Of a stretch of 64,000 bases of DNA, positions 12,251 through 63,173 are shown in pieces (position 1 is the first letter of the stretch; every line of letters begins with the position of its first letter). The translations under genes were made by a program, and so were the position numbers. Below the pieces are notes generated by a model. The model saw only the letters and a list, made by a program, of their open reading frames with translations, did no database searches and was not told the DNA's origin. This DNA comes from Escherichia coli (GTDB lineage: Bacteria; Pseudomonadota; Gammaproteobacteria; Enterobacterales; Enterobacteriaceae). Location of the stretch: assembly GCF_016026235.1 (NCBI RefSeq), contig NZ_CP065613.1; one strand, written 5' to 3'.

Positions 12251-12255
12251 AAGTA

Positions 12256-13095: not shown

Positions 13096-13122
13096 AATAC
13101 CCAATGCGACCAGCTTCTTATA

Positions 13123-28322: not shown

Positions 28323-28332
28323 GGGACTCCCC
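28323..28332. repeat. Target-site duplication, right copy (GGGACTCCCC)
   Basis: See the left copy at 27019..27028. Confidence 0.7.
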
Positions 28333-29485: not shown

Positions 29486-29528
29486 ATGCAGCTTCTGCGC
29501 TTATATCAAGGAATAGAGAACATCATTA

Positions 29529-32500
29529 ATGAACAAAATATTTAAAGTTATCTGGAACCCTGCGACAGGGAATTATACTGTTACCAGCGAAACGGCAAAA
29601 AGCCGTGGTAAGAAATCTGGTCGCAGTAAGCTGTTAATTTCTGCCCTGGTCGCGGGTGGAATGTTTTCGTCGTTTGGGGCATTGGCGAATGCCGGGAATG
29701 ACAACGGTCAGGGTGTTGATTACGGTAGTGGATCAGCTGGCGACGGCTGGGTTGCTATAGGCAAAGGGGCGAAAGCAAATACTTTTATGAACACCAGTGG
29801 TTCCAGTACTGCTGTGGGTTATGAAGCTATAGCTGAAGGCCAATATAGCTCTGCCATCGGTTCAAAAACCCATGCGATTGGTGGTGCATCAATGGCGTTT
29901 GGGGTTAGTGCAATATCAGAAGGCGATAGAAGTATAGCACTGGGTGCCTCTTCGTATTCATTGGGCCAATACTCAATGGCCCTCGGCCGTTATTCAAAAG
30001 CATTGGGTAAATTGTCTATTGCTATGGGGGACTCTTCCAAAGCGGAAGGAGCAAACGCCATTGCGCTGGGAAATGCCACTAAAGCTACTGAGATTATGAG
30101 TATTGCTCTTGGCAACACCGCCAATGCGTCAAAAGCGTATTCAATGGCGCTGGGAGCAAGTAGCGTCGCATCTGAAGAAAACGCGATTGCCCTGGGGCGT
30201 AGCAGTGCAGCTAATGGTACTGACAGCCTCGCATTAGGCAGACTATCCGTCGCCAGCGCAGCAAACGCCATTACGATAGGTGCTGAGAGCAAAGCCGCTG
30301 AAAATGCGACGGCCGTTGGTACCAAAGCGGAGGCCAATGGACTTAATAGTATCGCGTTGGGCTCTGGGGGTATTGCAGATGCCGATAACACGATTGCTCT
30401 GGGCAATCAAAGCCTGGCAGTAGCTGCTGGTGCAATTGCCATCGGTCAGGGGAATAAAGCTGACGGCGCAAATGCTATCGCGCTGGGTAATGGTAGTGTT
30501 ACAGGTGGCGCAAATGCTATTGCTCTTGGACAAGGTAGTTATGCCGGTTTAGAAAATGGCATTGCAATTGGTGGTCAAGCCAGTGCTCAAGGGACAAATT
30601 CCGTTGCTCTGGGTGCGGGTTCTGTAGCGACTGAAGATAATTCCGTCTCTGTGGGTAACACAACAGATCAGCGAAAAATTGTCAATATGGCAGCAGGTGA
30701 TATCAGCACTAGCAGTACTGATGCCATAAATGGATCACAGCTTTATGCTATCAGTAAGTCAGTAGCGGACCGTCTTGGTGGGGGGGCTACCGTCAATGCG
30801 CAAGGTGTCGTTACTGCCCCGAATTACAGACTGAAAAATGGTATTTATGGCAATGTTGGCGATGCTTTAGCGGATCTAAACAATAACACGATACAATGGG
30901 ACTCCGTTAAAAAGGGATATAGTGCGGCACATGGTACAGATGCCACCAGCACCATCACCAACGTTAAAGCCGGCACTATTTCTGCTACCAGTACGGATGC
31001 GGTTAACGGTTCCCAACTGAAAGCTACCAATGACGATGTCGAAGCCAACACCGCCAATATCGCTACTAATACCAGCAACATTGCCACGAATACGGCAAGT
31101 ATTGCCACCAACACCACCAATATCACCAACCTGACGAATTCCGTTGGTGACCTTAAGGATGATGCCCTGCTGTGGAATGATGCTAAAAATGCATTCAGTG
31201 CAGCTCACGACCAGGATACCACCAGCAAAATCACCAACGTTAAAGATGGCGACCTGACGGCTGGCAGCACCGATGCCGTTAATGGCTCTCAGCTGAAAAC
31301 CACCAACGATGCCGTGGCGACGAATACCACCAATATCGCCACTAACACTTCCAATATTGCCACTAACACTTCCAACATCTCTACCCTGACTGAGACGGTG
31401 ACTAATCTTGGTGAGGATGCGCTGAAATGGGATAAGGACAGTGGTGTCTTCACGGCAGCACACGGCACCGAGGCCACCAGCAAAATCACCAACGTTAAAG
31501 ATGCCGACCTGACGGCTGACAGCACCGATGCCGTTAACGGCTCTCAGCTGAAAACCACCAACGATGCTGTGGCGACGAATACCACCAATATCGCCAATAA
31601 CACCTCCAATATTGCCACTAACACCACCAACATCTCTAACCTGACTGAGACGGTGACTAACCTTGGTGAAGATGCGCTGAAATGGGATAAGGACAATGGT
31701 GTATTCACGGCAGCTCATGGCAACAACGCCACCAGCAAAATCACCAACGTTAAAGATGGCGACCTGACGGCTGGCAGCACCGATGCCGTTAACGGCTCTC
31801 AGCTGAAGACCACCAACGATGCCGTGGCGACGAATACCACCAATATTGCCACTAACACCACCAACATCTCTACCCTGACTGAGACGGTGACTAATCTTGG
31901 TGAGGATGCGCTGAAATGGGATAAGGACAATGGTGTATTCACGGCAGCTCATGGCAACAACACCGCCAGCAAAATCACCAATATCCTGGACGGCACAGTC
32001 ACTGCAACCAGTTCCGATGCCATTAACGGCAGCCAGCTTTATGACTTAAGCAGCAATATCGCCAGCTACTTCGGCGGCAACGCTTCTGTGAATACTGACG
32101 GTGTGTTTACCGGTCCAACCTACAAAATCGGTGAAACAAATTATTATAACGTCGGCGATGCACTGGCTGCGATTAACTCCTCATTTAGCACGTCTCTCGG
32201 CGATGCCCTGCTTTGGGACGCTTCCGTAGATAAATTTAGTGCCAAACACGGTACTAATGGTGACGCAAGCGTGATCACTGATGTCGCAAACGGGGATGTT
32301 TCAAGCACAAGCTCTGATGCTGTGAACGGCTCGCAACTCTATACCACCAATAAGTACGTCGTAGATGCGCTGGGTGGTGGTGCCGAAGTCAATGCTGACG
32401 GCAGCATCAGTGCGCCGACTTACACTATCGCAAACGCAGATTACGATAATGTCGGTGATGCCCTGAATGCTATCGATACCACTCTTGATGACGCTCTGCT

Positions 32501-34625
32501 CTGGGATGCAGACGCCGGTGAAAATGGTGCATTTAGCGCCGCTCACGGAAAAGATAAAACTGCCAGTGTAATCACTAACGTCGCTAACGGTGCAATCTCT
32601 GCTGCCAGCAGCGACGCGATTAACGGCTCACAACTCTATACCACCAATAAGTACATCGCTGATGCGCTGGGTGGTGACGCAGAAGTCAACGCTGACGGCA
32701 CCATCACCGCACCGACTTACACCATTGCGAACGCCGAGTACAACAACGTCGGTGACGCCCTGGATGCGCTTGATGATAACGCCCTGCTGTGGGATGAGAC
32801 TGCCAACGGCGGTGCTGGAGCCTACAATGCCAGCCATGACGGTAAAGCCAGCATCATCACTAATGTCGCTAATGGCAGTATTAGTGAGGACAGCACCGAT
32901 GCAGTGAATGGTTCTCAGTTGAATGCGACGAATTTGATGATTGAGCAGAACAGCCAAATCATCAATCAGCTTGCTGGTAACACCGACACAACCTATATCG
33001 AAGAAAATGGCGCTGGTATCAACTACGTTCGTACTAACGACAACGGTTTAGCCTTTAACGATGCAAGCGCCTCTGGTGTCGGCGCTACAGCTGTAGGTTA
33101 TAACGCTGTCGCGTCTGGTGCCAGCAGCGTAGCCATTGGTCAGAACAGCAGCAGCACCGTTGATACCGGTATTGCGCTGGGTAGCAGCTCCGTTTCCAGC
33201 CGTGTGATTGCCAAAGGTTCTCGTGATACCAGCGTGTCAGAAGAAGGTGTTGTGATTGGTTATGACACCACGGATGGCGAACTGCTCGGTGCATTGTCGA
33301 TTGGTGATGATGGCAAGTACCGTCAAATTATCAACGTAGCCGATGGTTCCGAAGCCCATGACGCCGTTACGGTTCGCCAGTTGCAGAACGCTATTGGAGC
33401 GGTCGCCACTACGCCAACCAAGTACTATCACGCCAACTCAACGGCAGAAGACTCACTGGCCGTTGGTGAAGACTCGCTGGCAATGGGTGCGAAAACTGTC
33501 GTTAATGGTAATGCAGGTATTGGTATCGGTTTGAACACTCTGGTTCTGGCTGATGCGATCAACGGTATTGCTATCGGCAGTAACGCACGCGCAAACCATG
33601 CAAACAGTATTGCAATGGGTAACGGTTCTCAGACCACCCGTGGTGCACAGACTGGCTACACCGCCTACAACATGGACGCACCGCAGAACTCTGTAGGTGA
33701 GTTTTCTGTCGGTAGTGAAGACGGTCAACGCCAGATCACCAACGTCGCAGCTGGTTCAGCGGATACCGATGCGGTTAACGTGGGTCAGTTGAAAGTCACT
33801 GATGAGCGCGTAGCGCAAAATACCCAGAGCATTACTAACCTGAACAATCAGGTCACTAATCTGGATACTCGCGTTACTAATATCGAAAACGGTATTGGCG
33901 ATATCGTGACCACCGGTAGCACCAAGTACTTCAAGACCAACACCGATGGCGTAGATGCCAACGCCCAGGGTAAAGATAGCGTTGCGATTGGTTCTGGTTC
34001 CATTGCTGCCGCTGACAACAGCGTCGCTCTGGGTACAGGCTCCGTGGCCAACGAAGAAAACACGATCTCTGTGGGTTCTTCTACCAACCAGCGCCGTATC
34101 ACCAACGTAGCTGCCGGTGTTAATGCCACCGATGCGGTTAACGTGTCGCAGCTGAAATCTTCTGAAGCAGGCGGCGTTCGCTACGACACCAAAGCGGATG
34201 GCTCTATCGACTACAGCAACATCACTCTCGGTGGTGGCAACGGAGGTACGACTCGCATCAGCAACGTTTCCGCAGGTGTGAACAACAACGACGCGGTGAA
34301 CTACGCGCAGTTGAAGCAAAGCGTGCAGGAAACAAAGCAATACACCGATCAGCGCATGGTTGAGATGGATAACAAACTGTCTAAAACTGAAAGCAAGTTG
34401 AGCGGTGGTATCGCTTCTGCAATGGCAATGACCGGTCTGCCGCAGGCTTACACTCCAGGTGCCAGCATGGCTTCTATTGGTGGCGGTACTTACAACGGTG
34501 AATCGGCAGTTGCTTTAGGTGTATCGATGGTGAGCGCCAATGGTCGTTGGGTCTACAAATTACAAGGTAGTACCAATAGCCAGGGTGAATACTCCGCCGC
34601 ACTCGGTGCCGGTATTCAGTGGTAA
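29529..34625 (+). CDS. ehaG: Trimeric autotransporter adhesin (YadA-like head, repetitive stalk, C-terminal YadA anchor); EhaG/UpaG-like
   Basis: 1698-aa ORF with the extended TAA signal peptide ([18 protein letters not shown]…), a head of repeated GxxAxAxG/SIALG motifs, neck motifs (NSVSVG…[10 protein letters not shown]…DAVNVSQL), DALLWD…FSAAHG stalk repeats and a C-terminal anchor ending …AALGAGIQW. The symbol is assigned by locus position between yibL and lldP; upaG is equally possible. Confidence 0.85.
30890..32040 (+). repeat. Tandem 240-252-bp coding repeats inside the adhesin stalk (about five near-identical copies)
   Basis: Unit …[17 protein letters not shown]…[42 protein letters not shown]… recurs with unit starts at about 30893, 31160, 31417, 31669 and 31909; degenerate copies continue to about 32800. 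Confidence 0.85.
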
Positions 34626-45709: not shown

Positions 45710-46669
45710 TTGTTTCCATTTCGTCGTAACGTTCTTGCATTTGCCGCTCTGTTGGCGCTCTCCTCCCCCGTACTTGCTGGCAAACTTGCCATCGTCATTG
45801 ATGATTTTGGGTATCGCCCGCACAACGAAAACCAGGTGCTGGCGATGCCTTCCGCTATCTCCGTCGCTGTATTACCCGATTCACCGCACGCCAGAGAGAT
45901 GGCGACCAAAGCGCATAACAGCGGTCACGAAGTGTTGATTCATCTCCCGATGGCACCGTTGAGTAAACAGCCGCTGGAGAAAAATACGCTACGCCCGGAG
46001 ATGAGCAGCGACGAAATTGAGCGCATTATTCGTAGTGCGGTCAATAACGTGCCCTATGCCGTGGGGATCAACAACCACATGGGCAGCAAGATGACCTCTA
46101 ACCTGTTTGGTATGCAGAAAGTGATGCAGGCGCTGGAGCGTTACAATCTTTACTTCCTCGACAGCGTAACCATTGGTAATACCCAGGCGATGCGCGCCGC
46201 GCAAGGCACTGGCGTGAAGGTTATTAAACGGAAGGTGTTCCTCGACGATTCACAGAACGAAGCGGACATCCGTGTGCAGTTCAATCGCGCAATTGATCTG
46301 GCGCGTCGCAACGGTTCAACCATTGCCATTGGGCATCCTCACCCTTCAACGGTACGCGTGCTACAACAGATGGTTTATAACCTGCCGCCAGACATTACGC
46401 TGGTGAAAGCCAGCAGCCTGCTGAATGAACCGCAGGTTGATACGTCTACACAGCCGAAAAACACTGTGCCCGACACACCGCGTAATCCGTTCCGTGGCGT
46501 GAAGCTGTGCAAACCGAAGAAACCGATAGAACCTGTTTATGCTAATCGCTTCTTTGAAGTATTAAGCGAAAGTATCAGCCAGAGCACGCTGATCGTTTAC
46601 TTCCAGCATCAGTGGCAAGGCTGGGGCAAACAGCCCGAAGCGGCGAAACTTAACGCTAGCGCAAATTAA
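45710..46669 (+). CDS. yibQ: Divergent polysaccharide deacetylase family protein
   Basis: 319-aa ORF with a signal peptide; position after envC matches yibQ. Confidence 0.8.
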   Translation: MFPFRRNVLAFAALLALSSPVLAGKLAIVIDDFGYRPHNENQVLAMPSAISVAVLPDSPHAREMATKAHNSGHEVLIHLPMAPLSKQPLEKNTLRPEMSSDEIERIIRSAVNNVPYAVGINNHMGSKMTSNLFGMQKVMQALERYNLYFLDSVTIGNTQAMRAAQGTGVKVIKRKVFLDDSQNEADIRVQFNRAIDLARRNGSTIAIGHPHPSTVRVLQQMVYNLPPDITLVKASSLLNEPQVDTSTQPKNTVPDTPRNPFRGVKLCKPKKPIEPVYANRFFEVLSESISQSTLIVYFQHQWQGWGKQPEAAKLNASAN

Positions 46670-47690
46670 AGGCGCTACGCGTAATGCGATGGTGCGACCG
46701 CGTTTTGTCGCGCCATTGCCATAAGCGGAAAGACCACAGTAACGCCTGGTAACCCACCTTCACGCTGCGCACATTGGTAATCAGGCGCTTATACATACCG
46801 GAAGTAAATATCTCGGCAATCATCCGTTGGCGGGTAAGAATATCCGGCTCTTTGCGCACCGCATGGCAAACACGCAATGCTTCGTAAGTTATTTGCTGAT
46901 GAAATTCCGGATAAATCGTAATTTTGTCGGCATAATTTCGATTTAATTTCTCCAGCAGGCGGGTAATCTTAATATAGTGACGTTGATAATTAAGGTTTTT
47001 ATTCCCTTGTCTATGCAACCGACTCACTGACGTATTATGCAGATAATATTTATATAATGATTGCTCGGTATATCGCGCACGCAGCGCATTAAACATGAAT
47101 TCTGTTGTCCAGACAATATCCTGATGATGTAATCCGGCAATAAATTTAATGTTATTTTTAACAATAACATCGCGGCGATAAACCCCCATCCAGACAACGT
47201 GAGTCCAACGGCGCGAAGAAAGCCCCATCCGCAGCCAGTCCGGGCCGGTTAATACACCGGTTGAGCGAAGGCGATCGCTGGGGATGGATTGCCAGGTTTC
47301 TCCCGTTTCACGAAAACACCAGTCAGCGTTGCACTGCGCCACGTCGAGGTCGTCCTCTAACGCCATGGTCATCAGCGTTTCGTACATGGTGGGATAGACT
47401 TCATCGTCAGCATCGACAAAAGCGACATATTTGTCCGTTGCCACTTCAATCCCACGATTACGCGCCACCGATGCGCCAGCATTCGCCTGATGCAACAAAC
47501 GAACGTGCGGATAGTTTTCTGCGTAATGCTTTGCTATTTCAACAGAATTATCCGTTGAACCATCGTTAATAATAATGATTTCCAGAGCAGTCCAGGTTTG
47601 CGTAATTAAAGATTCCATACAAGTGCGGAAATCATCGCCCGCATTATATAACGGAATAATAACACTAAGTTTATTGGTGCTGTTCATCAT
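46656..47690 (-). CDS. waaH: GT2-family LPS core glucuronosyltransferase
   Basis: 344-aa ORF with the N-terminal GT2 signature (LSVIIPLYNAGDDF…IIINDGSTDNS); position matches waaH (yibD); 14-bp convergent overlap with yibQ. Confidence 0.8.
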   Translation of the reverse strand: MMNSTNKLSVIIPLYNAGDDFRTCMESLITQTWTALEIIIINDGSTDNSVEIAKHYAENYPHVRLLHQANAGASVARNRGIEVATDKYVAFVDADDEVYPTMYETLMTMALEDDLDVAQCNADWCFRETGETWQSIPSDRLRSTGVLTGPDWLRMGLSSRRWTHVVWMGVYRRDVIVKNNIKFIAGLHHQDIVWTTEFMFNALRARYTEQSLYKYYLHNTSVSRLHRQGNKNLNYQRHYIKITRLLEKLNRNYADKITIYPEFHQQITYEALRVCHAVRKEPDILTRQRMIAEIFTSGMYKRLITNVRSVKVGYQALLWSFRLWQWRDKTRSHHRITRSAFNLR

Positions 47691-50434: not shown

Positions 50435-51307
50435 CTATTTTCTTGAAAGGAAAATTCTCAGCGCCTGCATTTTTGCCCCTAAAGTGTTACTCCTGAAGCA
50501 GCGAAACAAATCGAACCATTTTCCTCTCCCCAGATAGTTTAGGTTGAAGAGATCGGGGCGTTTGTAATAGCACATGACAAAAATGCCCTGGTCATCATCC
50601 ACAATGTTATTATTTAGTGTTATTTTTTGACTTTCCAGAACTAATTTATAGAATTCTTTCCATTTATGCTGTGAACCAACAATTGCGCCCCCAATAATAT
50701 ATACATGATTGCCAATCATGAAATCAAAAACCTGTTGTTGAGATGTGACAGTAAGCCCTTTTTTTATAGTGAAAAGATGCATCTTACTTTCATCAAATGG
50801 GAAATCCCAAATTTTCAATCCTCGAGTTACATTTGGCTTACGGCAATAGCCAAAATCTATCCACGCAACAAGAGGCGTTTTCACTAAGCCCATGTTGATA
50901 GCTTTATTTACAAAATAGGCCTTAAGGTTACATACCAATACATACTCTGGTGACCAGTACTCTGGGTTTTTTAATTGTCGAGGCTCAAGTCTATTTGTAA
51001 ACGACTCATCTTTTTGAATTTTTTCGATACGACTTCTGATATATCTAAATTTCTTTTTTATATCGATAACGATAACCGTTGTTGGTTTTCCGTTGCGAAT
51101 CGCTTCAACCCTTGGTTTCAAATCGGGAGAAGTGAAAATAATCATCTCATTTTCAAGTGCGGCCAGACGCTCAAAGTAACTAAAATAAACATCAACTGAA
51201 CGAGCTAGTTTTTCACGGAACCCTTTATTAGCAGTCCAATCCCCTCTACCAATGTCAAAATATGCAGTGATAATTGTGGTGGATGATTTCATTACTAATA
51301 AGACCAT
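50435..51307 (-). CDS. htrL: HtrL/YibB-family protein (LPS-locus associated, function unclear)
   Basis: 290-aa ORF, AT-rich, located between kbl and hldD as htrL is in E. coli. Confidence 0.7.
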   Translation of the reverse strand: MVLLVMKSSTTIITAYFDIGRGDWTANKGFREKLARSVDVYFSYFERLAALENEMIIFTSPDLKPRVEAIRNGKPTTVIVIDIKKKFRYIRSRIEKIQKDESFTNRLEPRQLKNPEYWSPEYVLVCNLKAYFVNKAINMGLVKTPLVAWIDFGYCRKPNVTRGLKIWDFPFDESKMHLFTIKKGLTVTSQQQVFDFMIGNHVYIIGGAIVGSQHKWKEFYKLVLESQKITLNNNIVDDDQGIFVMCYYKRPDLFNLNYLGRGKWFDLFRCFRSNTLGAKMQALRIFLSRK

Positions 51308-51595: not shown

Positions 51596-52528
51596 ATGAT
51601 CATCGTTACCGGCGGCGCGGGCTTTATCGGCAGCAACATCGTTAAAGCCCTGAATGATAAAGGCATCACCGATATTCTGGTGGTGGACAACCTGAAAGAC
51701 GGCACCAAGTTTGTGAACCTGGTGGATCTGAATATCGCAGACTATATGGATAAGGAAGACTTCCTGATCCAGATTATGGCTGGCGAAGAGTTCGGCGATG
51801 TCGAAGCGATTTTCCACGAAGGCGCGTGCTCTTCCACCACCGAGTGGGACGGCAAGTATATGATGGATAACAACTATCAATACTCCAAGGAGCTGCTGCA
51901 CTACTGCCTGGAGCGTGAAATCCCGTTCCTGTACGCTTCTTCCGCAGCCACCTACGGCGGACGCACCTCCGACTTTATTGAATCCCGCGAGTACGAAAAA
52001 CCGTTGAACGTCTACGGTTACTCAAAATTCCTGTTTGATGAATATGTTCGCCAAATCCTGCCGGAAGCGAACTCGCAGATTGTTGGCTTCCGCTATTTCA
52101 ACGTTTATGGACCGCGTGAAGGCCATAAAGGCAGCATGGCGAGCGTCGCTTTCCATCTCAACACCCAGCTTAATAACGGTGAATCACCGAAGCTGTTCGA
52201 AGGTAGCGAGAACTTTAAACGCGACTTCGTCTATGTTGGCGACGTGGCAGATGTAAACCTGTGGTTCCTGGAAAATGGCGTTTCCGGCATCTTCAACCTC
52301 GGCACCGGTCGTGCGGAATCCTTCCAGGCTGTAGCTGATGCTACGCTGGCTTATCACAAGAAAGGCCAGATCGAATACATTCCGTTCCCGGATAAGCTGA
52401 AAGGCCGCTACCAGGCGTTCACTCAGGCAGATCTGACAAATCTGCGCGCGGCGGGTTACGACAAACCGTTCAAAACCGTTGCTGAAGGTGTAACGGAATA
52501 CATGGCCTGGCTGAATCGCGACGCATAA
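51596..52528 (+). CDS. hldD: ADP-L-glycero-D-manno-heptose-6-epimerase
   Basis: 310-aa ORF starting [23 protein letters not shown]… (NAD-binding Rossmann fold), matching HldD/RfaD. Confidence 0.93.
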
Positions 52529-52537
52529 GAGCTCTGC

Positions 52538-53584
52538 ATGAAAATACTGGTGATCGGCCCGTCTTGGGTTGGCGACATGATGATGTCGCAAAGTCTCTAT
52601 CGCACGCTCCAGGCGCGCTATCCCCAGGCGATAATCGATGTGATGGCACCGGCATGGTGCCGTCCATTATTATCGCGGATGCCGGAAGTTAACGAAGCTA
52701 TCCCTATGCCTCTCGGTCACGGAGCGCTGGAAATCGGCGAACGCCGCAAACTGGGTCATAGCCTGCGTGAAAAGCGCTACGACCGCGCCTACGTCTTACC
52801 TAACTCCTTCAAATCCGCATTAGTGCCTTTCTTCGCGGGTATTCCTCATCGCACCGGCTGGCGCGGCGAGATGCGCTACGGTTTACTCAACGATGTACGC
52901 GTGCTCGATAAAGAAGCCTGGCCGCTAATGGTGGAACGCTATGTCGCGCTGGCCTATGACAAAGGCGTGATGCGTACCGCACAAGATCTACCAAAACCGT
53001 TGTTATGGCCGCAATTGCAGGTGAGCGAAGGTGAAAAATCATATACCTGTAATCAATTTTCGCTTTCATCAGAACGTCCGATGATTGGCTTTTGCCCGGG
53101 TGCGGAGTTTGGTCCGGCAAAACGCTGGCCACACTACCACTATGCGGAGCTGGCAAAGCAGCTGATTGATGAAGGTTATCAGGTGGTTCTGTTTGGCTCG
53201 GCGAAAGATCATGAAGCGGGCAATGAGATTCTTGCCGCTTTGAATACCGAGCAGCAGGCATGGTGTCGGAACCTGGCGGGGGAAACACAGCTTGATCAAG
53301 CGGTTATCCTGATTGCAGCCTGTAAAGCCATTGTCACTAACGATTCTGGCCTGATGCACGTTGCGGCGGCGCTCAATCGTCCGCTGGTTGCCCTGTATGG
53401 TCCGAGTAGCCCGGACTTCACACCGCCGCTATCCCATAAAGCGCGCGTGATCCGTCTGATTACCGGCTATCACAAAGTGCGTAAAGGTGACGCTGCGGAG
53501 GGTTATCACCAGAGCTTGATCGACATGACTCCCCAGCGCGTACTGGAAGAACTCAACGCGCTATTGTTACAAGAGGAAGCCTGA
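52538..53584 (+). CDS. waaF: LPS heptosyltransferase II
   Basis: 348-aa ORF of the GT9 family starting MKILVIGPSWVGDMMMSQ…. Confidence 0.9.
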   Translation: MKILVIGPSWVGDMMMSQSLYRTLQARYPQAIIDVMAPAWCRPLLSRMPEVNEAIPMPLGHGALEIGERRKLGHSLREKRYDRAYVLPNSFKSALVPFFAGIPHRTGWRGEMRYGLLNDVRVLDKEAWPLMVERYVALAYDKGVMRTAQDLPKPLLWPQLQVSEGEKSYTCNQFSLSSERPMIGFCPGAEFGPAKRWPHYHYAELAKQLIDEGYQVVLFGSAKDHEAGNEILAALNTEQQAWCRNLAGETQLDQAVILIAACKAIVTNDSGLMHVAAALNRPLVALYGPSSPDFTPPLSHKARVIRLITGYHKVRKGDAAEGYHQSLIDMTPQRVLEELNALLLQEEA

Positions 53585-53587
53585 CGG

Positions 53588-54580
53588 ATGCGGGTTTTGA
53601 TCGTTAAAACATCGTCGATGGGTGATGTTCTCCATACGTTGCCCGCACTCACTGATGCCCAGCAGGCAATCCCAGGGATTAAGTTTGACTGGGTGGTGGA
53701 AGAAGGGTTCGCACAGATTCCTTCCTGGCACGCTGCCGTTGAGCGAGTTATTCCTGTGGCAATACGTCGCTGGCGTAAAGCCTGGTTCTCGGCCTCCATA
53801 AAAGCTGAACGCAAAGCGTTTCGTGAAGCGCTACAAGCAGAGAACTATGACGCAGTTATCGACGCTCAGGGGCTGGTAAAAAGCGCGGCGCTGGTGACGC
53901 GTCTGGCGCATGGCGTAAAGCATGGCATGGACTGGCAAACCGCTCGCGAACCTTTAGCCAGCCTGTTTTACAATCGTAAGCATCATATTGCAAAACAGCA
54001 GCACGCCGTAGAACGCACCCGCGAACTGTTTGCCAAAAGTTTGGGCTATAGCAAACCGCAAACCCAGGGCGATTATGCTATCGCACAGCATTTTCTGACG
54101 AACCTGCCTACAGATGCTGGCGAATATGCCGTATTTCTTCATGCGACGACCCGTGATGATAAACACTGGCCGGAAGAACACTGGCGAGAATTGATTGGTT
54201 TACTGGCTGATTCAGGAATACGGATTAAACTTCCGTGGGGCGCGCCGCATGAGGAAGAACGGGCGAAACGACTGGCGGAAGGATTTGCTTATGTTGAAGT
54301 ATTGCCGAAGATGAGTCTGGAAGGCGTTGCCCGCGTGCTGGCCGGGGCTAAATTTGTAGTGTCGGTGGATACGGGGTTAAGCCATTTAACGGCGGCACTG
54401 GATAGACCCAATATCACGGTTTATGGACCAACCGATCCGGGATTAATTGGTGGGTATGGGAAGAATCAAGTAGAGTGTCGTTCTACAAGTATGTCTCTTG
54501 CAGATTTGCCAGCTCAAACCGTTTTTCAAAATTTAAATCTTGAAATAATAACCAATAAGTTGACATCGGAGATAAGATGA
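53588..54580 (+). CDS. waaC: LPS heptosyltransferase I
   Basis: 330-aa ORF of the GT9 family starting MRVLIVKTSSMGDVLHTLPALTDA…. Confidence 0.9.
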   Translation: MRVLIVKTSSMGDVLHTLPALTDAQQAIPGIKFDWVVEEGFAQIPSWHAAVERVIPVAIRRWRKAWFSASIKAERKAFREALQAENYDAVIDAQGLVKSAALVTRLAHGVKHGMDWQTAREPLASLFYNRKHHIAKQQHAVERTRELFAKSLGYSKPQTQGDYAIAQHFLTNLPTDAGEYAVFLHATTRDDKHWPEEHWRELIGLLADSGIRIKLPWGAPHEEERAKRLAEGFAYVEVLPKMSLEGVARVLAGAKFVVSVDTGLSHLTAALDRPNITVYGPTDPGLIGGYGKNQVECRSTSMSLADLPAQTVFQNLNLEIITNKLTSEIR

Positions 54581-55785
54581 CCTCAACATTATTTTTCTCT
54601 CTCGAGAAAAAAAACTGGATAGCGTACTGGAACAGAGCTCTCGTATTCTTATTCATTACCACCTATTTTTTGGGTGGGATTACAAGGTATAAACATCTTA
54701 TTGTTATTCTTATGACAATAACGACAATCGTCTATCTCTGCAAACGGCCAAAACACTATCTCTCACTATTTAAAACATTTCTTTTTGGTAGTGTTGCCAT
54801 ATTAACTATTGCTGCATTGCTGTCACTTCTTCAATCCCCTGATGCAGGTGCTAGCATGAAGGAAATTTTCAAAGCTATTATTGAGAATACTTTACTATGC
54901 ACAATAGCAATACCGATCATATTGAGAGACGAGAAAAGAGAAGATGTCGAAAAAATCGTTTTCTTCTCATTTATTAGTGCGTTGGGCTTACGCTGTTTTT
55001 CTGAATTGATTACCTATTATAAGGACTATCAACAAGGGATAATGCCATTCGCAGATTATAGACACCGTAGCATTTCTGACTCGATGGTCTTTTTATTCCC
55101 TGCATTGTTAAATCTCTGGCTTATCAAATCAGCAAAATACCGCATTTCTTTTGTGGTTCTAAGCGTTATTTTTATTTTTCTGATATTAGGAACTTTATCC
55201 AGAGGGGCCTGGCTTTCCGTGTTAGTCATTGGATTAATATGGATTCTGATGTTTAAACAATGGAAGTTACTATTAGTAGGAGTAATGGTTGCCATCATTG
55301 CATTGTCGGTTATTTTCACACATAAGGAGATGACCGCAAAGCTAACGTATAAACTTCAACAAACTAATAGTTCTTATCGCTATGCAAATGGTACTCAAGG
55401 CAGCGCACTCGATCTAATATTAGAAAATCCTGTTATTGGTTATGGTTACGGTAACGTTGCATATAAAGATGTCTATAATAAACGTGTCATTGATTATCCA
55501 GAATGGACCTTTAGACAATCAATAGGGCCACATAATTTTGCGCTATTCATCTGGTTTGGCACTGGTTTATTAGGGCTGGTAAGTCTTATGATGCTATACT
55601 GTGCAATATTGAAAGAGTGTATAAAAAATGGCGTCAAGAATAAATATCGCTCACCATATAATGCATATTATATAATCTTACTATCTTTTATAGGTTATTT
55701 TGTTATCCGTGGAAACGTAGAACAAATTGAACCAAATTTATTAGGCGTTTACGCCGGCTTATTATTAGCGATGAAAAACAAGTAA
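54577..55785 (+). CDS. waaL: O-antigen ligase
   Basis: 402-aa polytopic membrane protein, AT-rich, downstream of waaC and overlapping its stop. Confidence 0.8.
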   Translation: MTSTLFFSLEKKNWIAYWNRALVFLFITTYFLGGITRYKHLIVILMTITTIVYLCKRPKHYLSLFKTFLFGSVAILTIAALLSLLQSPDAGASMKEIFKAIIENTLLCTIAIPIILRDEKREDVEKIVFFSFISALGLRCFSELITYYKDYQQGIMPFADYRHRSISDSMVFLFPALLNLWLIKSAKYRISFVVLSVIFIFLILGTLSRGAWLSVLVIGLIWILMFKQWKLLLVGVMVAIIALSVIFTHKEMTAKLTYKLQQTNSSYRYANGTQGSALDLILENPVIGYGYGNVAYKDVYNKRVIDYPEWTFRQSIGPHNFALFIWFGTGLLGLVSLMMLYCAILKECIKNGVKNKYRSPYNAYYIILLSFIGYFVIRGNVEQIEPNLLGVYAGLLLAMKNK

Positions 55786-55820
55786 AAAATAAAAAAGGCT
55801 GCATAATGCGGCCTTTTTAT

Positions 55821-56963
55821 TTATTCAAACCAATTATGAATAACCTCTTCGAATCTTTGAGTTACGCCATCCCAACTGTAGTGATTAAACACAAAGTCCT
55901 GACCTTGCTTTGCAACTGCTGTTAATTCAGGATTCGCTAACGTTTTTAAAATATCGCTGCTTATGGAGTCTGCAGTCATAGGTTCTTTTAAATGGAATCC
56001 CGTAGTATTTTCTTTGACAAATTCCGTCATCCCCCCACGCGTACTCACTAAAACAGGCTTACCAGCACCCATAGCTTCAATTGCCACCATGCAAAATGGT
56101 TCCTGGAACTGGGAAGGAATGACGACTAAATCTGCCAGTGGGTAATAACAATGCATCTTTTCAGGCGGTATGCTTCCTAACATAATGCAACGATCCTTCA
56201 AACGTTTTGCAATTTCCCTGACATTGCGTTGATATGCACCTTTGTCACTTTTACTCATTTCTGTATAATCACCAATCACAACTAATTTTAAATTTTTGTG
56301 AGCAGCGGCCAATTTTTCGAATGATTGCATCAACAGCAATATGCCTTTGTCAGGGACGATACGCCCAGCATAAAAAATAATTTTCTCTTCAGGGGAGATA
56401 TTAAGTTCGCTTCTAGTGATCGGCTGAAAATTAGATTGATAGGTTTCTAAATCAATTCCATTTGGTACAATCTCAATATCTGCATTTGCTAAATAAGATT
56501 GGTAATACTTTTTCAAGTATAAACTAGGCACTATCATTTTAACATTTTGCTCAAGCAATTTTGGTTCAAATGCATTATGCATATGTATAACCACTCTTGC
56601 CTGAGGAGCTCGCTTACGAATTTGAGTGTATAGCTTCATGCTATTATGAACTACAATAACACTTTCTTTCGTTATAGGAAAATCATGTGCAATATTCAAT
56701 ATTCTCTGTGAATATGGAAGAGGATCAAGTCTTGTCCATTTTTGAAATAACCGCTTATATATGCGACTGAATCCAACCCTATGAATACTACAATTATCAT
56801 TAACAAAGGTGTAATTTGAGTATCCTGGATTTTTGATACAAACAATACGATTTGGAAAATTGGTACGCTGAGCAACCTGATACATCCACGTTTCAACAGC
56901 AGCCGCTCCGCGAGGAGGAATTGAAAAAATAGGAGTAACCGTAAATATTATTTTATCAACCAT
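55821..56963 (-). CDS. waaD: GT4-family LPS outer-core glycosyltransferase (WaaD/WaaK-like)
   Basis: 380-aa ORF with a GT4 C-terminal motif (…FQEPFCMVAIEAMGAGKPVLVSTRGGMTEFV); the symbol is inferred from R3-type gene order only. Confidence 0.6.
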   Translation of the reverse strand: MVDKIIFTVTPIFSIPPRGAAAVETWMYQVAQRTNFPNRIVCIKNPGYSNYTFVNDNCSIHRVGFSRIYKRLFQKWTRLDPLPYSQRILNIAHDFPITKESVIVVHNSMKLYTQIRKRAPQARVVIHMHNAFEPKLLEQNVKMIVPSLYLKKYYQSYLANADIEIVPNGIDLETYQSNFQPITRSELNISPEEKIIFYAGRIVPDKGILLLMQSFEKLAAAHKNLKLVVIGDYTEMSKSDKGAYQRNVREIAKRLKDRCIMLGSIPPEKMHCYYPLADLVVIPSQFQEPFCMVAIEAMGAGKPVLVSTRGGMTEFVKENTTGFHLKEPMTADSISSDILKTLANPELTAVAKQGQDFVFNHYSWDGVTQRFEEVIHNWFE

Positions 56964-56971
56964 CTCGTATA

Positions 56972-57985
56972 TTAACCTTTCATAACATTATATTTAATTG
57001 CTGTAAAAACACCATCGAGAAATTTTTTCTGGTAAAGCAAGTGTTTATATTTTTCTTTGTACTCATGTTTTTTAACAGCTTTTTTATAAGGTATATTTCT
57101 CCATGGTGATATATTATAAATATTACGAAAATAATCTGCAGAGGCGTAGTTCGCCCAATCATGCCATGGCTTAGTTATACCAGTATAATGTATGAAGACA
57201 GTGTCATCATTAATAAACCGGGTGTAATATTCACTATTTTTTTCTTCAAATTCTGACTTTATAGTATAAATACAATTATATTTTCTCGGTAATATTTTAG
57301 CATGATGTAGAAACATTAAGTTTAAAATATCTTGATCCGGGTACTTTAATTTTTTTATAATTGACTCATCTGATAATAGATCAAAGAATTTTTCCGTTAG
57401 TCTTTGTTTTAACCATTCCCGTAAATTAATATACATTACACCAGAGTTAAAATAGCTACCGTTAAAATCCTCATTACACAAACGCTCAGCGCTTTTACTT
57501 TGCATAGCATCTACATCAATTACCACTGCCCCATATTCATCTTTAAACTCTAATGCTATTAACTCGTTCAATGAACCCTTACAGACGATATCAGCATCAA
57601 GATATAATAATGAATCCAATCGCGCAGAAAAATAATCAAATGAAAGCAAACGATAATAAATAGATACTGGCCAGATATTTGATTGAGGTAGCGCCTTCAA
57701 TGGCTCAGAATCAATATGATATAATTTAATTACTGTTTGATACTTCGTTGCTAATTGTGATAATAATTCAATATACTCTTTGTCTAAGTAATCAGCGATT
57801 ATGTGAAAGGTAAATTTGTTTTGTTTATTATTTTCAAGAATTGAAGCAATTGAAATCGCAGCCCCAACCTGGTAGTTCTCATCAATACCCCATGAGACAT
57901 TAAACGTTTCCCGTTCATCAAGTTTAACGGGGCGCTTGTCCAGTTCAATTATATCTTTAAATTGAGTAAGATGTTTAAAATCCAA
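56972..57985 (-). CDS. waaJ: GT8-family LPS outer-core glycosyltransferase (WaaJ-like)
   Basis: 337-aa ORF of the GT8 family (DxD-containing), paralogous to 58743..59750; symbol by gene order. Confidence 0.6.
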   Translation of the reverse strand: MDFKHLTQFKDIIELDKRPVKLDERETFNVSWGIDENYQVGAAISIASILENNKQNKFTFHIIADYLDKEYIELLSQLATKYQTVIKLYHIDSEPLKALPQSNIWPVSIYYRLLSFDYFSARLDSLLYLDADIVCKGSLNELIALEFKDEYGAVVIDVDAMQSKSAERLCNEDFNGSYFNSGVMYINLREWLKQRLTEKFFDLLSDESIIKKLKYPDQDILNLMFLHHAKILPRKYNCIYTIKSEFEEKNSEYYTRFINDDTVFIHYTGITKPWHDWANYASADYFRNIYNISPWRNIPYKKAVKKHEYKEKYKHLLYQKKFLDGVFTAIKYNVMKG

Positions 57986-58009
57986 TTTAATTACCCTTCA
58001 TCATAATCA

Positions 58010-58717
58010 TTATTTGCTCTTCAATCCTAGTTTGACTTTTACATCCCTGATTACTTTTTTAATTTTCTTTTTGAATATAAGATATGTATAGCCAAAGTCT
58101 TTCAATTCATTTTTTATATTATAGTGCCGTTCAAGATCAATGCGATCTTTTGCTTTTAAAACAGCGGTTGTTTTTTTACCTGAAAGGTCAATTAGTCTTA
58201 AACCTTTTTCGGATACTATAAAATTTCCTTTATGAGGATCGCCAGACACCATTCCATGCTGATGCAACTCTTTTATCGATTCTGATAATTGATCCTTCAG
58301 ATCTTCAGAAATTTCCAAATACTCATTTAACCCGACACCTTCAATATACTCAATGAGCATAATATAATAATGAGCGAAATTTAATGTTTTACGTTCAGCT
58401 AGCAAAAAATAGTCATTAATTGATTGGATGCCTTCACCACGTACCCGATCGGTTTGATAAATTAAATTTTCATAATAATCTTTTTTTATGCAAGATTTTA
58501 AGAAACGTTCGGTCATTTTATGCTTTGGCGCATAAACTTTAAGTACAAGAGGTCCACGAGCAGTGTCAATAAGAATGACTTTAGTATCATCAATAGAACG
58601 AAAAACTTTTAATGTTTTAACCCTGCAAGTTAAAAAGTCATTTAGAACTTGCTCATAAAAGGGATCATTATCTTTTATGAAAACTTTCAACCCATTTATC
58701 GTTTTATTATATATCAT
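58010..58717 (-). CDS. waaY: LPS core heptose(II) kinase
   Basis: 235-aa kinase-like ORF (…HQHGMVSGDPHKGNFIV…) between two GT8 genes. Confidence 0.75.
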   Translation of the reverse strand: MIYNKTINGLKVFIKDNDPFYEQVLNDFLTCRVKTLKVFRSIDDTKVILIDTARGPLVLKVYAPKHKMTERFLKSCIKKDYYENLIYQTDRVRGEGIQSINDYFLLAERKTLNFAHYYIMLIEYIEGVGLNEYLEISEDLKDQLSESIKELHQHGMVSGDPHKGNFIVSEKGLRLIDLSGKKTTAVLKAKDRIDLERHYNIKNELKDFGYTYLIFKKKIKKVIRDVKVKLGLKSK

Positions 58718-58742
58718 AATGAATTATTTTAACCTTAAATCT

Positions 58743-59750
58743 TTAGAAGCATTTTTCTTTATAATACTTTAAATAATTAAAAATGCCTGCCATATAATGC
58801 TTTTGTTTAAATTTATGTTTTGCACAATACCGATACTGATTGCTATTTACAGGTTTAAGTAAATCTTCTTTACTCCACGGAGAAGCTGCTTTGGCGATCA
58901 AAAAACTACGTGACACCGGATAGTCAGCCCACTCATGCCAGGGTTTTGTAGGTCCCACATAGTGTATAAACACGGTGTCATCATTGACTGGATTATCAAC
59001 TTTGTCTTTTAATTCATAGTTAATACTATATCGGGTATTATATTTCTCCGAAATAAACTTCACTTTACCATTCAATAATACATTCAGTACATCTTGATCA
59101 AGGTGGGTGATTTTACTTACCCAATCTGGGTCACGCAACATTTCAATAGCTTTTGACGAAATATTATTTAGATTCCACTCATCAATATTTATCAGTAAAA
59201 AACCAGCATTGAAATATCCAGAAGCTAACTGTGGTGTAGTTAATACCGAGGCTCGATTTTGCCACCATTCAACATCTCTTTCAGCTACAACTGCGGCAAT
59301 TTCATTAGTAGAAAATTGATAATCTAAGAGTTCTTTAATACTACCCTTGCAAGCAATATCTGCATCAAGATATAGTATTTTTTCATGTTTATGATAGAAA
59401 TAATCTGCAATTATAAATCGAAAATATGTTGCGTAAGTCCAGTTTTTCGTGCTTGGTAATGACTTCAGCTTATCACAATTGATAACATAAATATTAATTC
59501 TTGAATTATATTGTTTTGCCAAATCAGAAAAATATAATTTGTCTTTATCACTGATATAATCTGTGAAAACATGAAATTCACAAGAGATTTCTCTATTGTT
59601 TAATAGAATAGATGCGATGGCTACACCACATCCAAAAAGAAAATTTCTGTCAATACCAAATGCTATATCAAGAGTATTTTTAGATCTTATATTTTGATAA
59701 TGAAAATTATACTCAAAAAGGATGATGTCACTATCATTGAGTTGAGACAT
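58743..59750 (-). CDS. waaI: GT8-family LPS outer-core glycosyltransferase (WaaI/WaaO-like)
   Basis: 335-aa ORF of the GT8 family; symbol by R3-type gene order. Confidence 0.6.
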   Translation of the reverse strand: MSQLNDSDIILFEYNFHYQNIRSKNTLDIAFGIDRNFLFGCGVAIASILLNNREISCEFHVFTDYISDKDKLYFSDLAKQYNSRINIYVINCDKLKSLPSTKNWTYATYFRFIIADYFYHKHEKILYLDADIACKGSIKELLDYQFSTNEIAAVVAERDVEWWQNRASVLTTPQLASGYFNAGFLLINIDEWNLNNISSKAIEMLRDPDWVSKITHLDQDVLNVLLNGKVKFISEKYNTRYSINYELKDKVDNPVNDDTVFIHYVGPTKPWHEWADYPVSRSFLIAKAASPWSKEDLLKPVNSNQYRYCAKHKFKQKHYMAGIFNYLKYYKEKCF

Positions 59751-59792
59751 ATTTATTCTGTATCCAAAATTTTGGCAAAAATAAGTTACGGG

Positions 59793-60599
59793 TTACAACG
59801 ATTTTCGAATCGTTCTTTCCCTGATTTTTGTGGCTTTTGCTTCTGCTTGCGACAGCAGTCCTTGTTCCTGCTTGAGAATGTCTTTAAGCGGGGCGGCAAA
59901 ATACACCTTCATAAAGCGCCAGATATCCCGCTGAGTCAGGCCAATATTCATTGAAGAAAAATAAAGCCCTATAAGATCTTTATCGCGCCAACGACGTGGA
60001 ACGCGCGTGCGAAGCTGCGCCCGGTGTAGGTCAATTACCGAAATTTTTAACTCCTCTTCCTTACCGGAAAAAGGCAAGTGCAGCAGGAAATGACAGATAT
60101 AACAGTCACGATGGTTAATGCCCGCAGCATGCATATCGCGCACCATCGTCGCGACACGCTTAATAAGCATACGCTTTACGCGAACATCTGGTGGGTTGGT
60201 CGCCCAGTCAGCACAGTAATCTTCCAGACTGATGGTTGGTGTCAGATCTTCGGTAATAATAAACGAGGTTCTGGTCAGCGGATTCATGCCTTTTTCGCCG
60301 AATGCCACCCCATACATAGTATCAACGCCGACATCCCGCAGTCGATGAATCGCATTCCATTCGCGGTCTGCGCCTAATACTGGCATCCGCAATGAGAGTA
60401 AATTTTTGATTATCTCTTTCAGGGTCGTGCCGCGATGCCATTTGAGAAAATAGCTTTTGCCCGCCATTTCAAAGCGCAGAGTACGGCGAGTTTCCAGTTC
60501 ACGAAATACCTCACCCTGCAAGGTTTTAACTTCCTCAAAAGGATCTTTGCCGCGCCATAACGTGGCAAACGGCTCTTTAAGTTCAACCATCCAGACCAC
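59793..60599 (-). CDS. waaP: LPS core heptose(I) kinase
   Basis: 268-aa ORF starting [33 protein letters not shown]…, matching WaaP. Confidence 0.9.
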
Positions 60600-61707
60600 C
60601 CGTTATGATATCCGCCGCTTTCTCTGGCAGACTGTATAAATCTTGTGTATCAGCATAATGTCGCGCATTTTCCGCCCAAGCCTGGCGCAATGAAGATTGC
60701 GTTAACGCTTTGCGTAAAATCTCATTCAATGTTTCCTGGCGGAATGGCTCAGCAATAGCCTCGCCGCAATTAGCGTCGACAATATAATGCGCATAGCCAC
60801 AAACGGCAGTTGTTAGTACCGGTAATCCTGCAGTAATCGCTTCCAGCAGCACAATTCCCGCCGCTTCCTGGTAGGCAGGATGCAGTAATAAATCCGCCGC
60901 CGCCATTAATTCCGAGACATCGTTGCGCCCCGAGAAGAAGTGAACATTACTGCGCACGCCGCGTTTTTCTGCCAGTGCCTCAAATTTTCGCGGTTTATCC
61001 TGCCCAACAACATATAGCAATGTGTTGTGGCGCAGCGAATCCGGTAACGAAGCAAGTGCTTCAATGGAACGATCGACACCTTTACGCGTGAAGTCTGAAC
61101 CGACCTGCAACAATAAATATTGTTGTTCGGTTATTCCATTCTTCTTACGGAAGATTTCACGGCTATTGGCTGGCTGCTGGCTATATTTACGATCAGGATA
61201 AATCCCCGGTGGCAGAATATGAAAACGCTCCGCTTCAGTCTGATAATGTTTCTGGAAATCGGCGATTTGCTTATCTGTCAGCATCAGCAGCTGTGTCGGC
61301 TTGCCCTGTTCGAAGGTTGCCCGCTCAAAGGCGGCATAATGGCGATAACGTGACGTCAGGCGATAGAAAAAGCCTTTTTCCTGCGCTACTTTCTCGGCAT
61401 AACAAACATCAGCGGCATAATAAACGTCCAGCCCCGGCATTTTGTTGAATCCAACGACTTTATCGACGGGATGTTCGCGTAAATGTTTTTGCACCCAGGC
61501 AAAATACTCCGCATTGCGCCCGTGATTGGTATGCGATTTAACCGGCACTTTGATCAGTTCAAATACATCAGGGCATTCGCCTTCCCACGACTGGGTATAA
61601 ACCCGAACATGATGACCTCGGGCGGCGACTGTCTGAGCAATACGCATAAAATCGCGCTGCAAACCGCCAAAGGGAAAATATTTATATAAACAAAAAGCAA
61701 CGATCAT
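60583..61707 (-). CDS. waaG: LPS core glucosyltransferase I
   Basis: 374-aa GT4 ORF starting [24 protein letters not shown]…, matching WaaG. Confidence 0.9.
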
Positions 61708-62762
61708 AACGACGTACCTGTCGTGGAGGAGGGCAGTAATTTATCGACAGCAGCAATGACATCTGCCGCCGGAATAACCGAAAGATACATCTCATTTCGG
61801 TCACGCTGATCGCGCGTTGGCATTTCCCGGTAATCTCCCGCCCAGAATTGAATCATGTTATTTGACCAGGGACGCCAGAAAATATGGTCTGTCGCACCAA
61901 ACAGCGATATCAGCGGCGTATTAACTGCAGCGGCAATATGCGCCGGTGCGGAATCAACGCCAATAAACAGCTGCGCATGATCGATTAACGCACCAAGTTC
62001 CGGGAAGGTCACCTTTCCAGCCAGCGCCGTTACTGGTAGCGTCTGGCATCCCTGCGCAATTTCATTGACGCAGGCCAGATCGTCTTTATCTGGGCCGGAC
62101 GTCAGAACAACTTCATAACCACGAGCATGTAAGGCATCAATCACAGCGGAAAACTTGGCGTTGTCCCAGCATTTGAAGATTTGCCGCGCCGTAGGTTGGA
62201 TAACCACATAATTTTGTCCAACACCAGCGTGATCAAGTTCGCAACGCATACGTTTCCAGCTTGCAGGCGGGTAACTCATGGTTGTCTGCTTCACCAACGA
62301 ATCAACTCCCAATGGGGTCAGCACGGATAAGTTACTTTCCACCACATTTCCACCCTGCAACGGCACCAAATGGGTGAAACTTTTACGCCAAAAAGCAGAC
62401 TGCCGATGATGATAATCCTGGGAAATTTTCACACGGGCATTTAATAAGCGAACCAGTATAGCAACCATCCATTGATCGGTGAGATTGACGATAAGGTCAT
62501 ACTTATTGGCACGTAATACCTTGATGAGATGAAAAAAGTTGGCAATTTTTTCTGAGGCTTTTGCTTTTTTATTTTTTATGCCGTAGAGCGCGTTAATCTC
62601 TGGATTTTCAGACAGGATCGGGATGGTGTCCTGATAAAGCAGCACATCGATTTTTGCGTCAGGGTAATTTTTTTTCAGCGAACTAATGACGGGAGTAGTT
62701 AATAACATATCCCCATGAAAACGCATCTTAATGAGCAAAATTCTTCGAAATGGCTTATCCAC
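61704..62762 (-). CDS. waaQ: LPS heptosyltransferase III
   Basis: 352-aa GT9 ORF; first gene of the divergent waaQ operon. Confidence 0.85.
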   Translation of the reverse strand: MDKPFRRILLIKMRFHGDMLLTTPVISSLKKNYPDAKIDVLLYQDTIPILSENPEINALYGIKNKKAKASEKIANFFHLIKVLRANKYDLIVNLTDQWMVAILVRLLNARVKISQDYHHRQSAFWRKSFTHLVPLQGGNVVESNLSVLTPLGVDSLVKQTTMSYPPASWKRMRCELDHAGVGQNYVVIQPTARQIFKCWDNAKFSAVIDALHARGYEVVLTSGPDKDDLACVNEIAQGCQTLPVTALAGKVTFPELGALIDHAQLFIGVDSAPAHIAAAVNTPLISLFGATDHIFWRPWSNNMIQFWAGDYREMPTRDQRDRNEMYLSVIPAADVIAAVDKLLPSSTTGTSL

Positions 62763-62811: not shown

Positions 62812-62823
62812 CACGCTACCGCC
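62812..62823 (-). promoter_or_regulatory. ops element (RfaH recruitment site, part of JUMPStart) in the waaQ leader
   Basis: The plus strand reads CACGCTACCGCC, the reverse complement of the ops consensus GGCGGTAGCGTG, about 50 bp upstream of the waaQ start codon on the waaQ strand. Confidence 0.8.
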
Positions 62824-63173
62824 CCAGGCTCAACAGCTACCTGAATACTGATACCGCACTGATATTGACGCGCTAGTGTATCACTTCTTTCGCGGCAATC
62901 CGACCCGAATGATTTTTAAGCACATTGTTGATTTTCAATAAAGAAATCAATCAAATAAAATCATTAGCAACCATATTCTTTCACTGTTGCTCTGCGATTC
63001 CTTCCTGCACGTACAGCAGAAATCAATGAATCGCATAAAAATACAAAAAAAGTATAGATGTTCAGCAAGAATTGGCGGGTAAATTGCTATTTAAGTCAAA
63101 AACGGGAAAAGTAATGGTAAAGCCACAGCTAAATACATAGAATCCCCAGCACATCCATAAGTCAGCTATTTAC

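Follow-up and report, generated by a model that had tools for sequence, protein, structure and literature searches.

An R3-type lipopolysaccharide core locus, closely matching that of O157:H7, in a 64-kb stretch of Escherichia coli DNA

This analysis concerns the waa (rfa) cluster for the lipopolysaccharide (LPS) core in a 64,000-nucleotide stretch of Escherichia coli DNA (contig NZ_CP065613.1), here called the window. Judged by gene order, protein identity and primer typing, the locus is almost certainly the chromosomal waa cluster of an R3-core E. coli, undamaged and all but indistinguishable from the O157:H7 locus, and its outer-core genes form an AT-rich cassette that appears to be swapped among E. 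coli lineages between conserved flanks.

Gene content of the locus

The region from the start of waaL to the start of waaQ (54577–62762) spans 8,186 bp and holds the genes Q-G-P-I-Y-J-D in the order typical of R3. The initial annotation had read this operon as waaQ-waaG-waaP followed by a family 8 glycosyltransferase (GT8), waaY, a second GT8 and a family 4 glycosyltransferase (GT4), with waaL on the opposite strand after waaC, and the open reading frame (ORF) map, NCBIfam and Pfam scans all return this arrangement; the K-12 order that it quoted for comparison (Q-G-P-S-B-O-J-Y-Z-U) likewise agrees with the annotation of MG1655. The features are as follows, with enzyme names to be taken as predictions.

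54577–55785, plus: waaL, O-antigen ligase, R3 allele, 402 amino acids (NCBIfam RfaL, 692.7 bits; Pfam Wzy_C)
55792–55818, between the convergent waaL and waaD: palindromic stem-loop AAAAAGGCTGCATAATGCGGCCTTTTT of 12 pairs, with A and T runs on either side (terminator scan)
55821–56963, minus: waaD, GT4, 380 amino acids (Pfam Glycos_transf_1; PRK15484, 769.8 bits)
56972–57985, minus: waaJ (= waaR), GT8, 337 amino acids, TTG start (Pfam Glyco_transf_8 and 8C)
58010–58717, minus: waaY, heptose II kinase, R3 allele, 235 amino acids (NCBIfam RfaY, 390 bits; Pfam WaaY)
58743–59750, minus: waaI (= waaO), GT8, 335 amino acids, alpha-1,3-galactosyltransferase (NCBIfam PRK15171, 619.6 bits, above cutoff)
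59793–60590, minus: waaP (ORF map)
60583–61707, minus: waaG (ORF map)
61704–62762, minus: waaQ (ORF map), which with waaG and waaP makes up the promoter-proximal conserved part of the waaQ operon
62812–62850, minus: JUMPstart element with ops sequence GGCGGTAGCGTG (Rfam RF01707, 55.2 bits against a gathering score of 35, E = 1.4e-10)
from 63175, plus: waaA, divergent (ORF map)
53588–54580, plus: waaC, heptosyltransferase I, whose final ~37 codons (from 54469) are R3-specific (ORF map)
52538–53584, plus: waaF, heptosyltransferase II (ORF map)
51596–52528, plus: rfaD/gmhD, heptose synthesis, in the left flank (ORF map)
50435–51292, minus: htrL/yibB (NCBIfam PRK11346, 551 bits; Pfam HtrL_YibB, PF09612)
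left of htrL/yibB, minus: tdh and kbl (ORF map)

All eight ORFs from waaL to waaQ are full length, can be aligned with their O157 counterparts over the entire protein and have intact start and stop codons. The ligase gene waaL is the final gene of the rfaD operon and overlaps the waaC stop by 4 bp. Between waaL and the convergent waaD, the stem-loop is likely a bidirectional intrinsic terminator, a function suggested by its match to the consensus. At the other end of the region, a gap of 50 nt separates waaQ from the JUMPstart element upstream of it, which places this element, with its ops sequence GGCGGTAGnnTG, in the 5′ leader of a long operon for surface polysaccharide, and JUMPstart/ops is invariant in the leaders of the window, K-12, R1 and R3 (O157). 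The ops sequence is the site at which RfaH is loaded onto RNA polymerase, suppressing termination through a long AT-rich operon, and from what is established about RfaH the waaQ operon would be expected to depend on RfaH and ops. A promoter scan gave 32 matches where 30.7 were expected, which is no better than shuffled sequence.

Assignment to the R3 core type

The proteins were compared with five reference loci, one per core type, namely 536 (R1), XYEH3934 (R2), O157 493/89 (R3), MSHS 133 (R4) and MG1655 (K-12), the type of each having been verified with published typing primers. WaaL (WP_000204742.1 in O157), WaaI and WaaY are 100% identical in amino acid sequence to those of the R3 reference, WaaD is 99.7% identical to its counterpart there, and WaaJ is identical to the O157 protein WP_000346017.1 except for the TTG start. 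Against the remaining references the same proteins fall far lower: WaaL reaches 51.5% to R2 and has no match in the R1, R4 or K-12 clusters, WaaD reaches 57% to the R2 WaaK and elsewhere ~23%, to WaaG only, and across R1, R2, R4 and K-12 the values are 40–44% for WaaJ, 54–58% for WaaI and 52–57% for WaaY. The initial annotation had proposed a BLASTP comparison of this kind as its own test, and the best matches of the GT8 and GT4 proteins, which it regarded as telling against R3 should they lie in another cluster, are all to R3 (99.7–100% against at most 58% elsewhere). The presence of the GT4 gene waaD, which has no equivalent in the R1, R4 and K-12 references, was confirmed; waaD has been reported as restricted to R3 strains (PMC3899070), and the R3-specific waaL allele is an in silico typing criterion of Leclercq et al. 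(PMC8715443).

The comparison was also run in the other direction. Reference proteins searched by tblastn gave no counterpart anywhere in the window for WaaS, WaaB, WaaZ, WaaU, WaaX or the R1, R4 and K-12 ligases, while WaaV matched waaH alone, weakly, and WaaT and WaaW matched only as GT8 paralogues at 37–43% identity. In silico core typing, a further test suggested at the outset, was carried out with the nine LPSTyper primers (PMC13293308) against the 64 kb. The R3 pair alone matches: R3-F exactly at 56881–56900 on the plus strand, in waaD, and R3-R exactly at 57879–57901 on the minus strand, in waaJ, for a predicted product of 1,021 bp that is exactly as expected and the same as the amplicon from the R3 reference. 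None of the remaining seven primers finds a site in the 64 kb, even with up to 3 mismatches allowed.

At the nucleotide level, megablast aligned the 8,186-bp region over its full length in 1,363 of 5,426 complete E. coli genomes at 98.3–100% identity, among them O157:H7 strains and O157 493/89; for R3 genomes including O157:H7/H- strains the full-length identity is given as 99.4–100%, and FDAARGOS_943 matches at 100%. In the remaining matching genomes the alignment is confined to waaP-waaG-waaQ, a part that was matched in 4,474 of the 5,426. The annotations of O157 493/89 and of FDAARGOS_943 are both collinear with the window. Nothing in the analysis contradicted the R3 genotype. The cluster itself holds no novelty: its gene order, enzyme roles, low-GC block and recombinational exchange have already been described, as has the R3 gene set (PMC8715443).

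The type-specific cassette and its boundaries

The R3-specific sequence is contained in a cassette of 5,324 bp (54469–59792) that takes in the waaC 3′ end, waaL, waaD, waaJ, waaY and waaI and reaches up to the base adjoining the waaP stop codon. Its GC content of 33.1% compares with a mean of 51.1% (standard deviation 2.6, minimum 44.3) in windows of equal length elsewhere in the 64 kb, which makes it the lowest such window in the stretch and places it ~7 standard deviations below the mean. By gene, GC is 35.2% in waaL, 36.9% in waaD, 30.7% in waaJ, 30.5% in waaY, 31.3% in waaI and 37.1% in htrL, against 46.8–54.3% for rfaD, waaF, waaC, waaP, waaG, waaQ, kbl and tdh, and GC at third codon positions (GC3) in the cassette genes is 24–34%. 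The AT-richness that the initial annotation had remarked on in the outer-core genes, waaL and htrL is thus real (30.5–37.1%) and well outside what chance would give, and its outline can be refined, in that waaY lies inside the low-GC type-specific block, with waaP, waaG and waaQ outside it.

The boundaries are sharp and shared. A blastn comparison with the five references places the left breakpoint within waaC, towards its 3′ end (54468/54469), where R1, R4 and K-12 all agree, and the right breakpoint at the waaP stop codon (59792/59793), where R1 and R4 agree. In the junction alignment the five types are identical as far as the breakpoint column and mutually unalignable beyond it. The flanks are 97–99% identical in nucleotide sequence among R3, R1 and R4. 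RfaD and WaaF are 98.9–100% identical in amino acid sequence across all core types, and WaaC, which spans the left breakpoint, is 99.4% identical over 330 amino acids to R3 only and 93–95% over 314–327 amino acids to the other types. On the right, WaaP, WaaG and WaaQ share 98–99.7% of their residues with R1, R3 and R4 and 73–90% with MG1655 and R2.

Identical flank proteins are found beside different cassettes. In FDAARGOS_943 the proteins RfaP WP_001295235.1 and WaaG WP_000634246.1 adjoin an R3 cassette, in E189 they adjoin one of type R1, and the same RfaP also stands next to the R1 cassette of an O121 strain, which is direct evidence for replacement of the cassette by homologous recombination in the conserved flanks. 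The horizontal exchange that had been proposed for the outer-core cassette is therefore borne out by the sharp common breakpoints and by these flank proteins. Both the low G+C of the variable block and its recombinational exchange are already in print (Leclercq et al. 2021; PMC8715443). Neither the annotation of R3 genomes nor the published account (PMC8715443) places insertion sequence (IS), phage or transposon remnants beside the cassette. The history of the locus would then be that of a 5.3-kb AT-rich cassette, bounded by conserved waaC and waaP, moving among E. coli lineages via homologous recombination in its flanks.

A separate observation concerns the waaQ-waaG-waaP block, which exists as two deep alleles: relative to both MG1655 and the R2 reference, WaaQ of the window is 73% identical, WaaG 88–90% and WaaP 84%. 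The K-12-type strain Ec55 has an R1-like waaQ-waaG-waaP allele (97.6% nucleotide identity), and this pairing of a K-12 cassette with an R1-like flank indicates that flank allele and cassette type have themselves been reassorted.

Proposed assembly of the core

The R3 core oligosaccharide has the structure Glc I-Gal I[GlcNAc]-Glc II-Glc III, in which Glc is glucose, Gal galactose and GlcNAc N-acetylglucosamine. The products of the locus are nearly identical to orthologues characterised in O157 and Shigella, which suggests how they would build it on the inner-core heptose (Hep) residues. The rfaD-waaF-waaC-waaL operon would provide for ADP-heptose synthesis, addition of Hep I and Hep II, and the R3-specific ligase. 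WaaQ would add Hep III, WaaG would add Glc I, and WaaP would phosphorylate Hep I. WaaI/O would then add Gal I onto Glc I, WaaY would phosphorylate Hep II, WaaJ/R would add Glc II, the residue to which O-antigen is attached, and WaaD would add the terminal Glc III. WaaL would finally ligate O-antigen linked to undecaprenyl diphosphate onto this R3 acceptor. With none of the ORFs broken or shortened in comparison with O157, the strain would be expected to make a complete R3 core. Passages in PMC12323348, PMC3899070, PMC3184986 and bioRxiv 10.1101/536201 give the enzyme roles of the R3 core genes.

Two side observations touch this scheme. The 2025 LPSTyper paper (PMC13293308) calls its R3-F target, 'waaD', an ADP-heptose 6-epimerase, and yet R3-F lies in the GT4 gene and not in rfaD; the names waaD and rfaD clash here. 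The second is that waaH, for a UDP-glucuronate:LPS(HepIII) glycosyltransferase, lies at ~45850–46900, upstream of tdh, an assignment made by collinearity with FDAARGOS_943. In the O157 R3 core the addition of glucuronic acid has not been seen, because Hep III is taken by a GlcNAc whose addition depends on wabB (bioRxiv 10.1101/536201). Any action of WaaH in the source strain would hinge on wabB, a gene outside the window.

Alternative readings

It might be supposed that the cluster resembles R3 in gene order only and in fact represents another or hybrid core type (R1, R2, R4, K-12 or a hybrid in the style of R2 and K-12). Hybrid loci are known in E. coli (PMC13293308), and the nearest non-R3 relatives of WaaL and WaaD do both lie in R2. 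However, all five cassette proteins are at 99.7–100% to the O157 R3 proteins, the primer matches are to R3 only, the diagnostic genes of the other types were found nowhere in the window, and the whole segment aligns to R3 genomes as one piece. This candidate was rejected on the two-way comparison with reference clusters together with primer typing, and next to no probability attaches to it. Nor is it at all probable, although slightly less far-fetched, that the locus is present but disabled by a hidden lesion, leaving a rough or truncated core. Such lesions are common, as in the waa locus of LB19b, which is interrupted by IS1, and in Ec55, in which waaZ and waaS are frameshifted, and in O157 strain Z1814 the R3 locus is 1 bp shorter; in the window, by comparison, the eight ORFs run their full O157 length between intact starts and stops, and the JUMPstart/ops leader is intact and the same as in other strains. 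Some limits nevertheless apply to the R3 reading. An R3 phenotype of the LPS is expected from the intact genes, that is, from sequence. The sources are inconsistent on the sugar specificity of WaaD and on GlcNAc residues: a passage in PMC3899070, citing Kaniuk 2004, makes WaaD the alpha-1,2 glucosyltransferase for terminal Glc III, a ΔwaaD mutant has been described as lacking GlcNAc (PMC3184986), and NCBI names the protein lipopolysaccharide N-acetylglucosaminyltransferase, by homology to WaaK. A complete R3 core also requires wabB, which is encoded outside the waa locus and is plasmid-borne in O157 (bioRxiv 10.1101/536201). Foreign origin of the cassette, finally, is suggested by composition, and the literature knows of no donor beyond Escherichia and Shigella (PMC8715443).

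An alternative that is a distinct possibility, if short of probable, is that the cassette was not imported recently, for all its AT-richness, and that the five cassettes are ancient alleles which diversifying selection by phages, predators or immunity has maintained at a single site in Escherichia. The low GC would then be long-standing, whether it reflects a foreign origin far back or a bias tied to function or regulation. The site and breakpoints are common to all core types, R3 cassettes across lineages differ by just 0–1.7%, the cassette edges lack IS, phage and transposon remnants and no homologue has been reported outside Escherichia and Shigella (both PMC8715443), and the GC3 of the cassette genes betrays no amelioration toward the host value, all of which would fit such a history. 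The ancient-allele view is nonetheless compatible with exchange among E. coli lineages, for it bears only on when, and from where, the cassette was first acquired, and exchange is directly indicated by the identical flank alleles next to different cassettes and by a patchy distribution over phylogroups (PMC13293308).

Distribution and significance

A census of core types over the 5,426 complete genomes gave R3 in 1,363 (25%), R1 in ~1,832, R4 in ~695, K-12 in ~1,032 and R2 in ~500, in agreement with published shares of 25.8% for R3, 35.4% for R1, 12.3% for R4, 18.4% for K-12 and 8.2% for R2 (PMC13293308). Among enterohaemorrhagic E. coli the share of R3 reaches 97.9%, and it is 84% in phylogroup E and 50% in B1 (PMC13293308).

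The initial annotation had gone on to state that the core type constrains which O-antigens a strain presents. This is overstated, because WaaL has a broad specificity for donors and several O-antigens are found on several cores (PMC13293308, PMC8715443); associations between O-antigen and core are statistical, with O1, O5, O83 and others occurring on several core types (PMC8715443, PMC13293308). What can be said is that the source strain is typed as R3 core, and that this type is relevant to predicting recognition by core-binding phages, anti-core antibodies and vaccines once O-antigen is absent or short.

The htrL/yibB gene

The gene htrL/yibB sits between kbl and rfaD and belongs to a family of unknown function. 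Its listing among the AT-rich genes of the locus holds as far as composition goes (37.1%), but not as regards membership of the outer-core cassette, from which it is 3.2 kb away as an independent low-GC presence/absence indel of ~1.2 kb. Of the 5,426 complete genomes 1,948 (36%) have htrL; both R3 references examined and MG1655 carry it, and it is absent from the R1 strains 536, E189, LB19b and O121, from R4 (MSHS 133), from R2 (XYEH3934) and from the K-12-type Ec55. Membership of the cassette was ruled out on this distribution and on the conserved rfaD-waaF-waaC genes that intervene.

A sequence search of HtrL against the PDB gave a best E value of 0.32, and the AlphaFold model built from the one sequence was too poor for use (mean predicted local distance difference test score 32.3). 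The HtrL family also occurs in the outer-core locus for lipooligosaccharide in Acinetobacter baumannii (PMC4172580). It is a speculation of very low probability that htrL encodes an uncharacterised LPS-modifying enzyme and that each of the five canonical core types would then be split, by having or lacking it, into sub-variants so far unrecognised; one form that this speculation might take is that htrL supplies an R3-core substitution whose enzyme a 2019 preprint calls unknown.

Other features of the window

The closest complete genome to the window is FDAARGOS_943, and the differences noted from it lie outside the waa cluster. The window has a ~1.3-kb insertion (27028–28322) in the intergenic region between yibL and a DUF3251 gene, with an IS4-family transposase gene at 27049–28290 on the minus strand (NF033591, 360 bits), that is absent from the otherwise 99.96%-identical FDAARGOS_943. 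That genome in turn carries an IS1 with a ~6.3-kb deletion, which removes mipA-like, LysR, HlyD-like, aldB and yiaY-like genes that are intact in the window at 9528–15830, and a further IS1 between tdh and waaH (~47865) that is not in the window. These IS1 differences indicate that the window comes from a related but distinct strain. An ORF of 1,698 amino acids (29529–34625, plus strand) corresponds to a gene annotated in FDAARGOS_943 as a YadA-like trimeric autotransporter and has internal repeats with an offset of ~250 bp at about 31068–31981. Upstream of it, a DUF3251-type gene (28802–29485, plus strand) lies in a low-GC patch (28250–29500, 30–39% GC).

Comparison with known core loci

The locus shares with K-12 the three-operon architecture and the JUMPstart/ops leader, and HtrL is 99.6% identical between the two. 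However, the K-12 waaQ operon has ten genes against seven in the window, its waaS, waaB, waaZ and waaU are not in the window, its WaaL is unrelated, and waaQ, waaG and waaP of MG1655 are only 73–90% identical to those of the window. The R1 and R4 loci (waaQ-G-P-O-T-Y-W-V/X-L) have nearly identical flanks, at 97–99% nucleotide identity, both left and right breakpoints in common and a shared GT8-GT8-waaY-GT8 theme. They differ in that their waaL lies on the other strand and bears no sequence relationship to that of the window, a family 2 (waaV) or family 25 (waaX) glycosyltransferase takes the place of the GT4, and a third GT8 is present; the R1 and R4 references examined are also without htrL.

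The R2 or Salmonella-type locus (waaQ-G-P-[GT8]-B-O-J-Y-Z-K, waaL) likewise has waaL on the same strand after waaC, and its terminal GT4 WaaK (57%) and WaaL (51.5%) are the nearest homologues outside R3. It has in addition waaB, waaZ and an extra GT8, none of which is in the window, and its waaQ, waaG and waaP are 73–89% identical. The R3 locus of O157:H7/O157:H- (493/89, NZ_CP038412.1) is another matter. Nucleotide identity to 493/89 is 99.4% over 12.6 kb, HtrL is also identical, and there is no structural difference, the few substitutions falling in the flanks (WaaF, WaaC, WaaP, WaaG and WaaQ at 98.9–99.7%). In this locus and in that of Shigella flexneri 2a the genes have the same order, strands, overlaps and intergenic spacing as those of the window.

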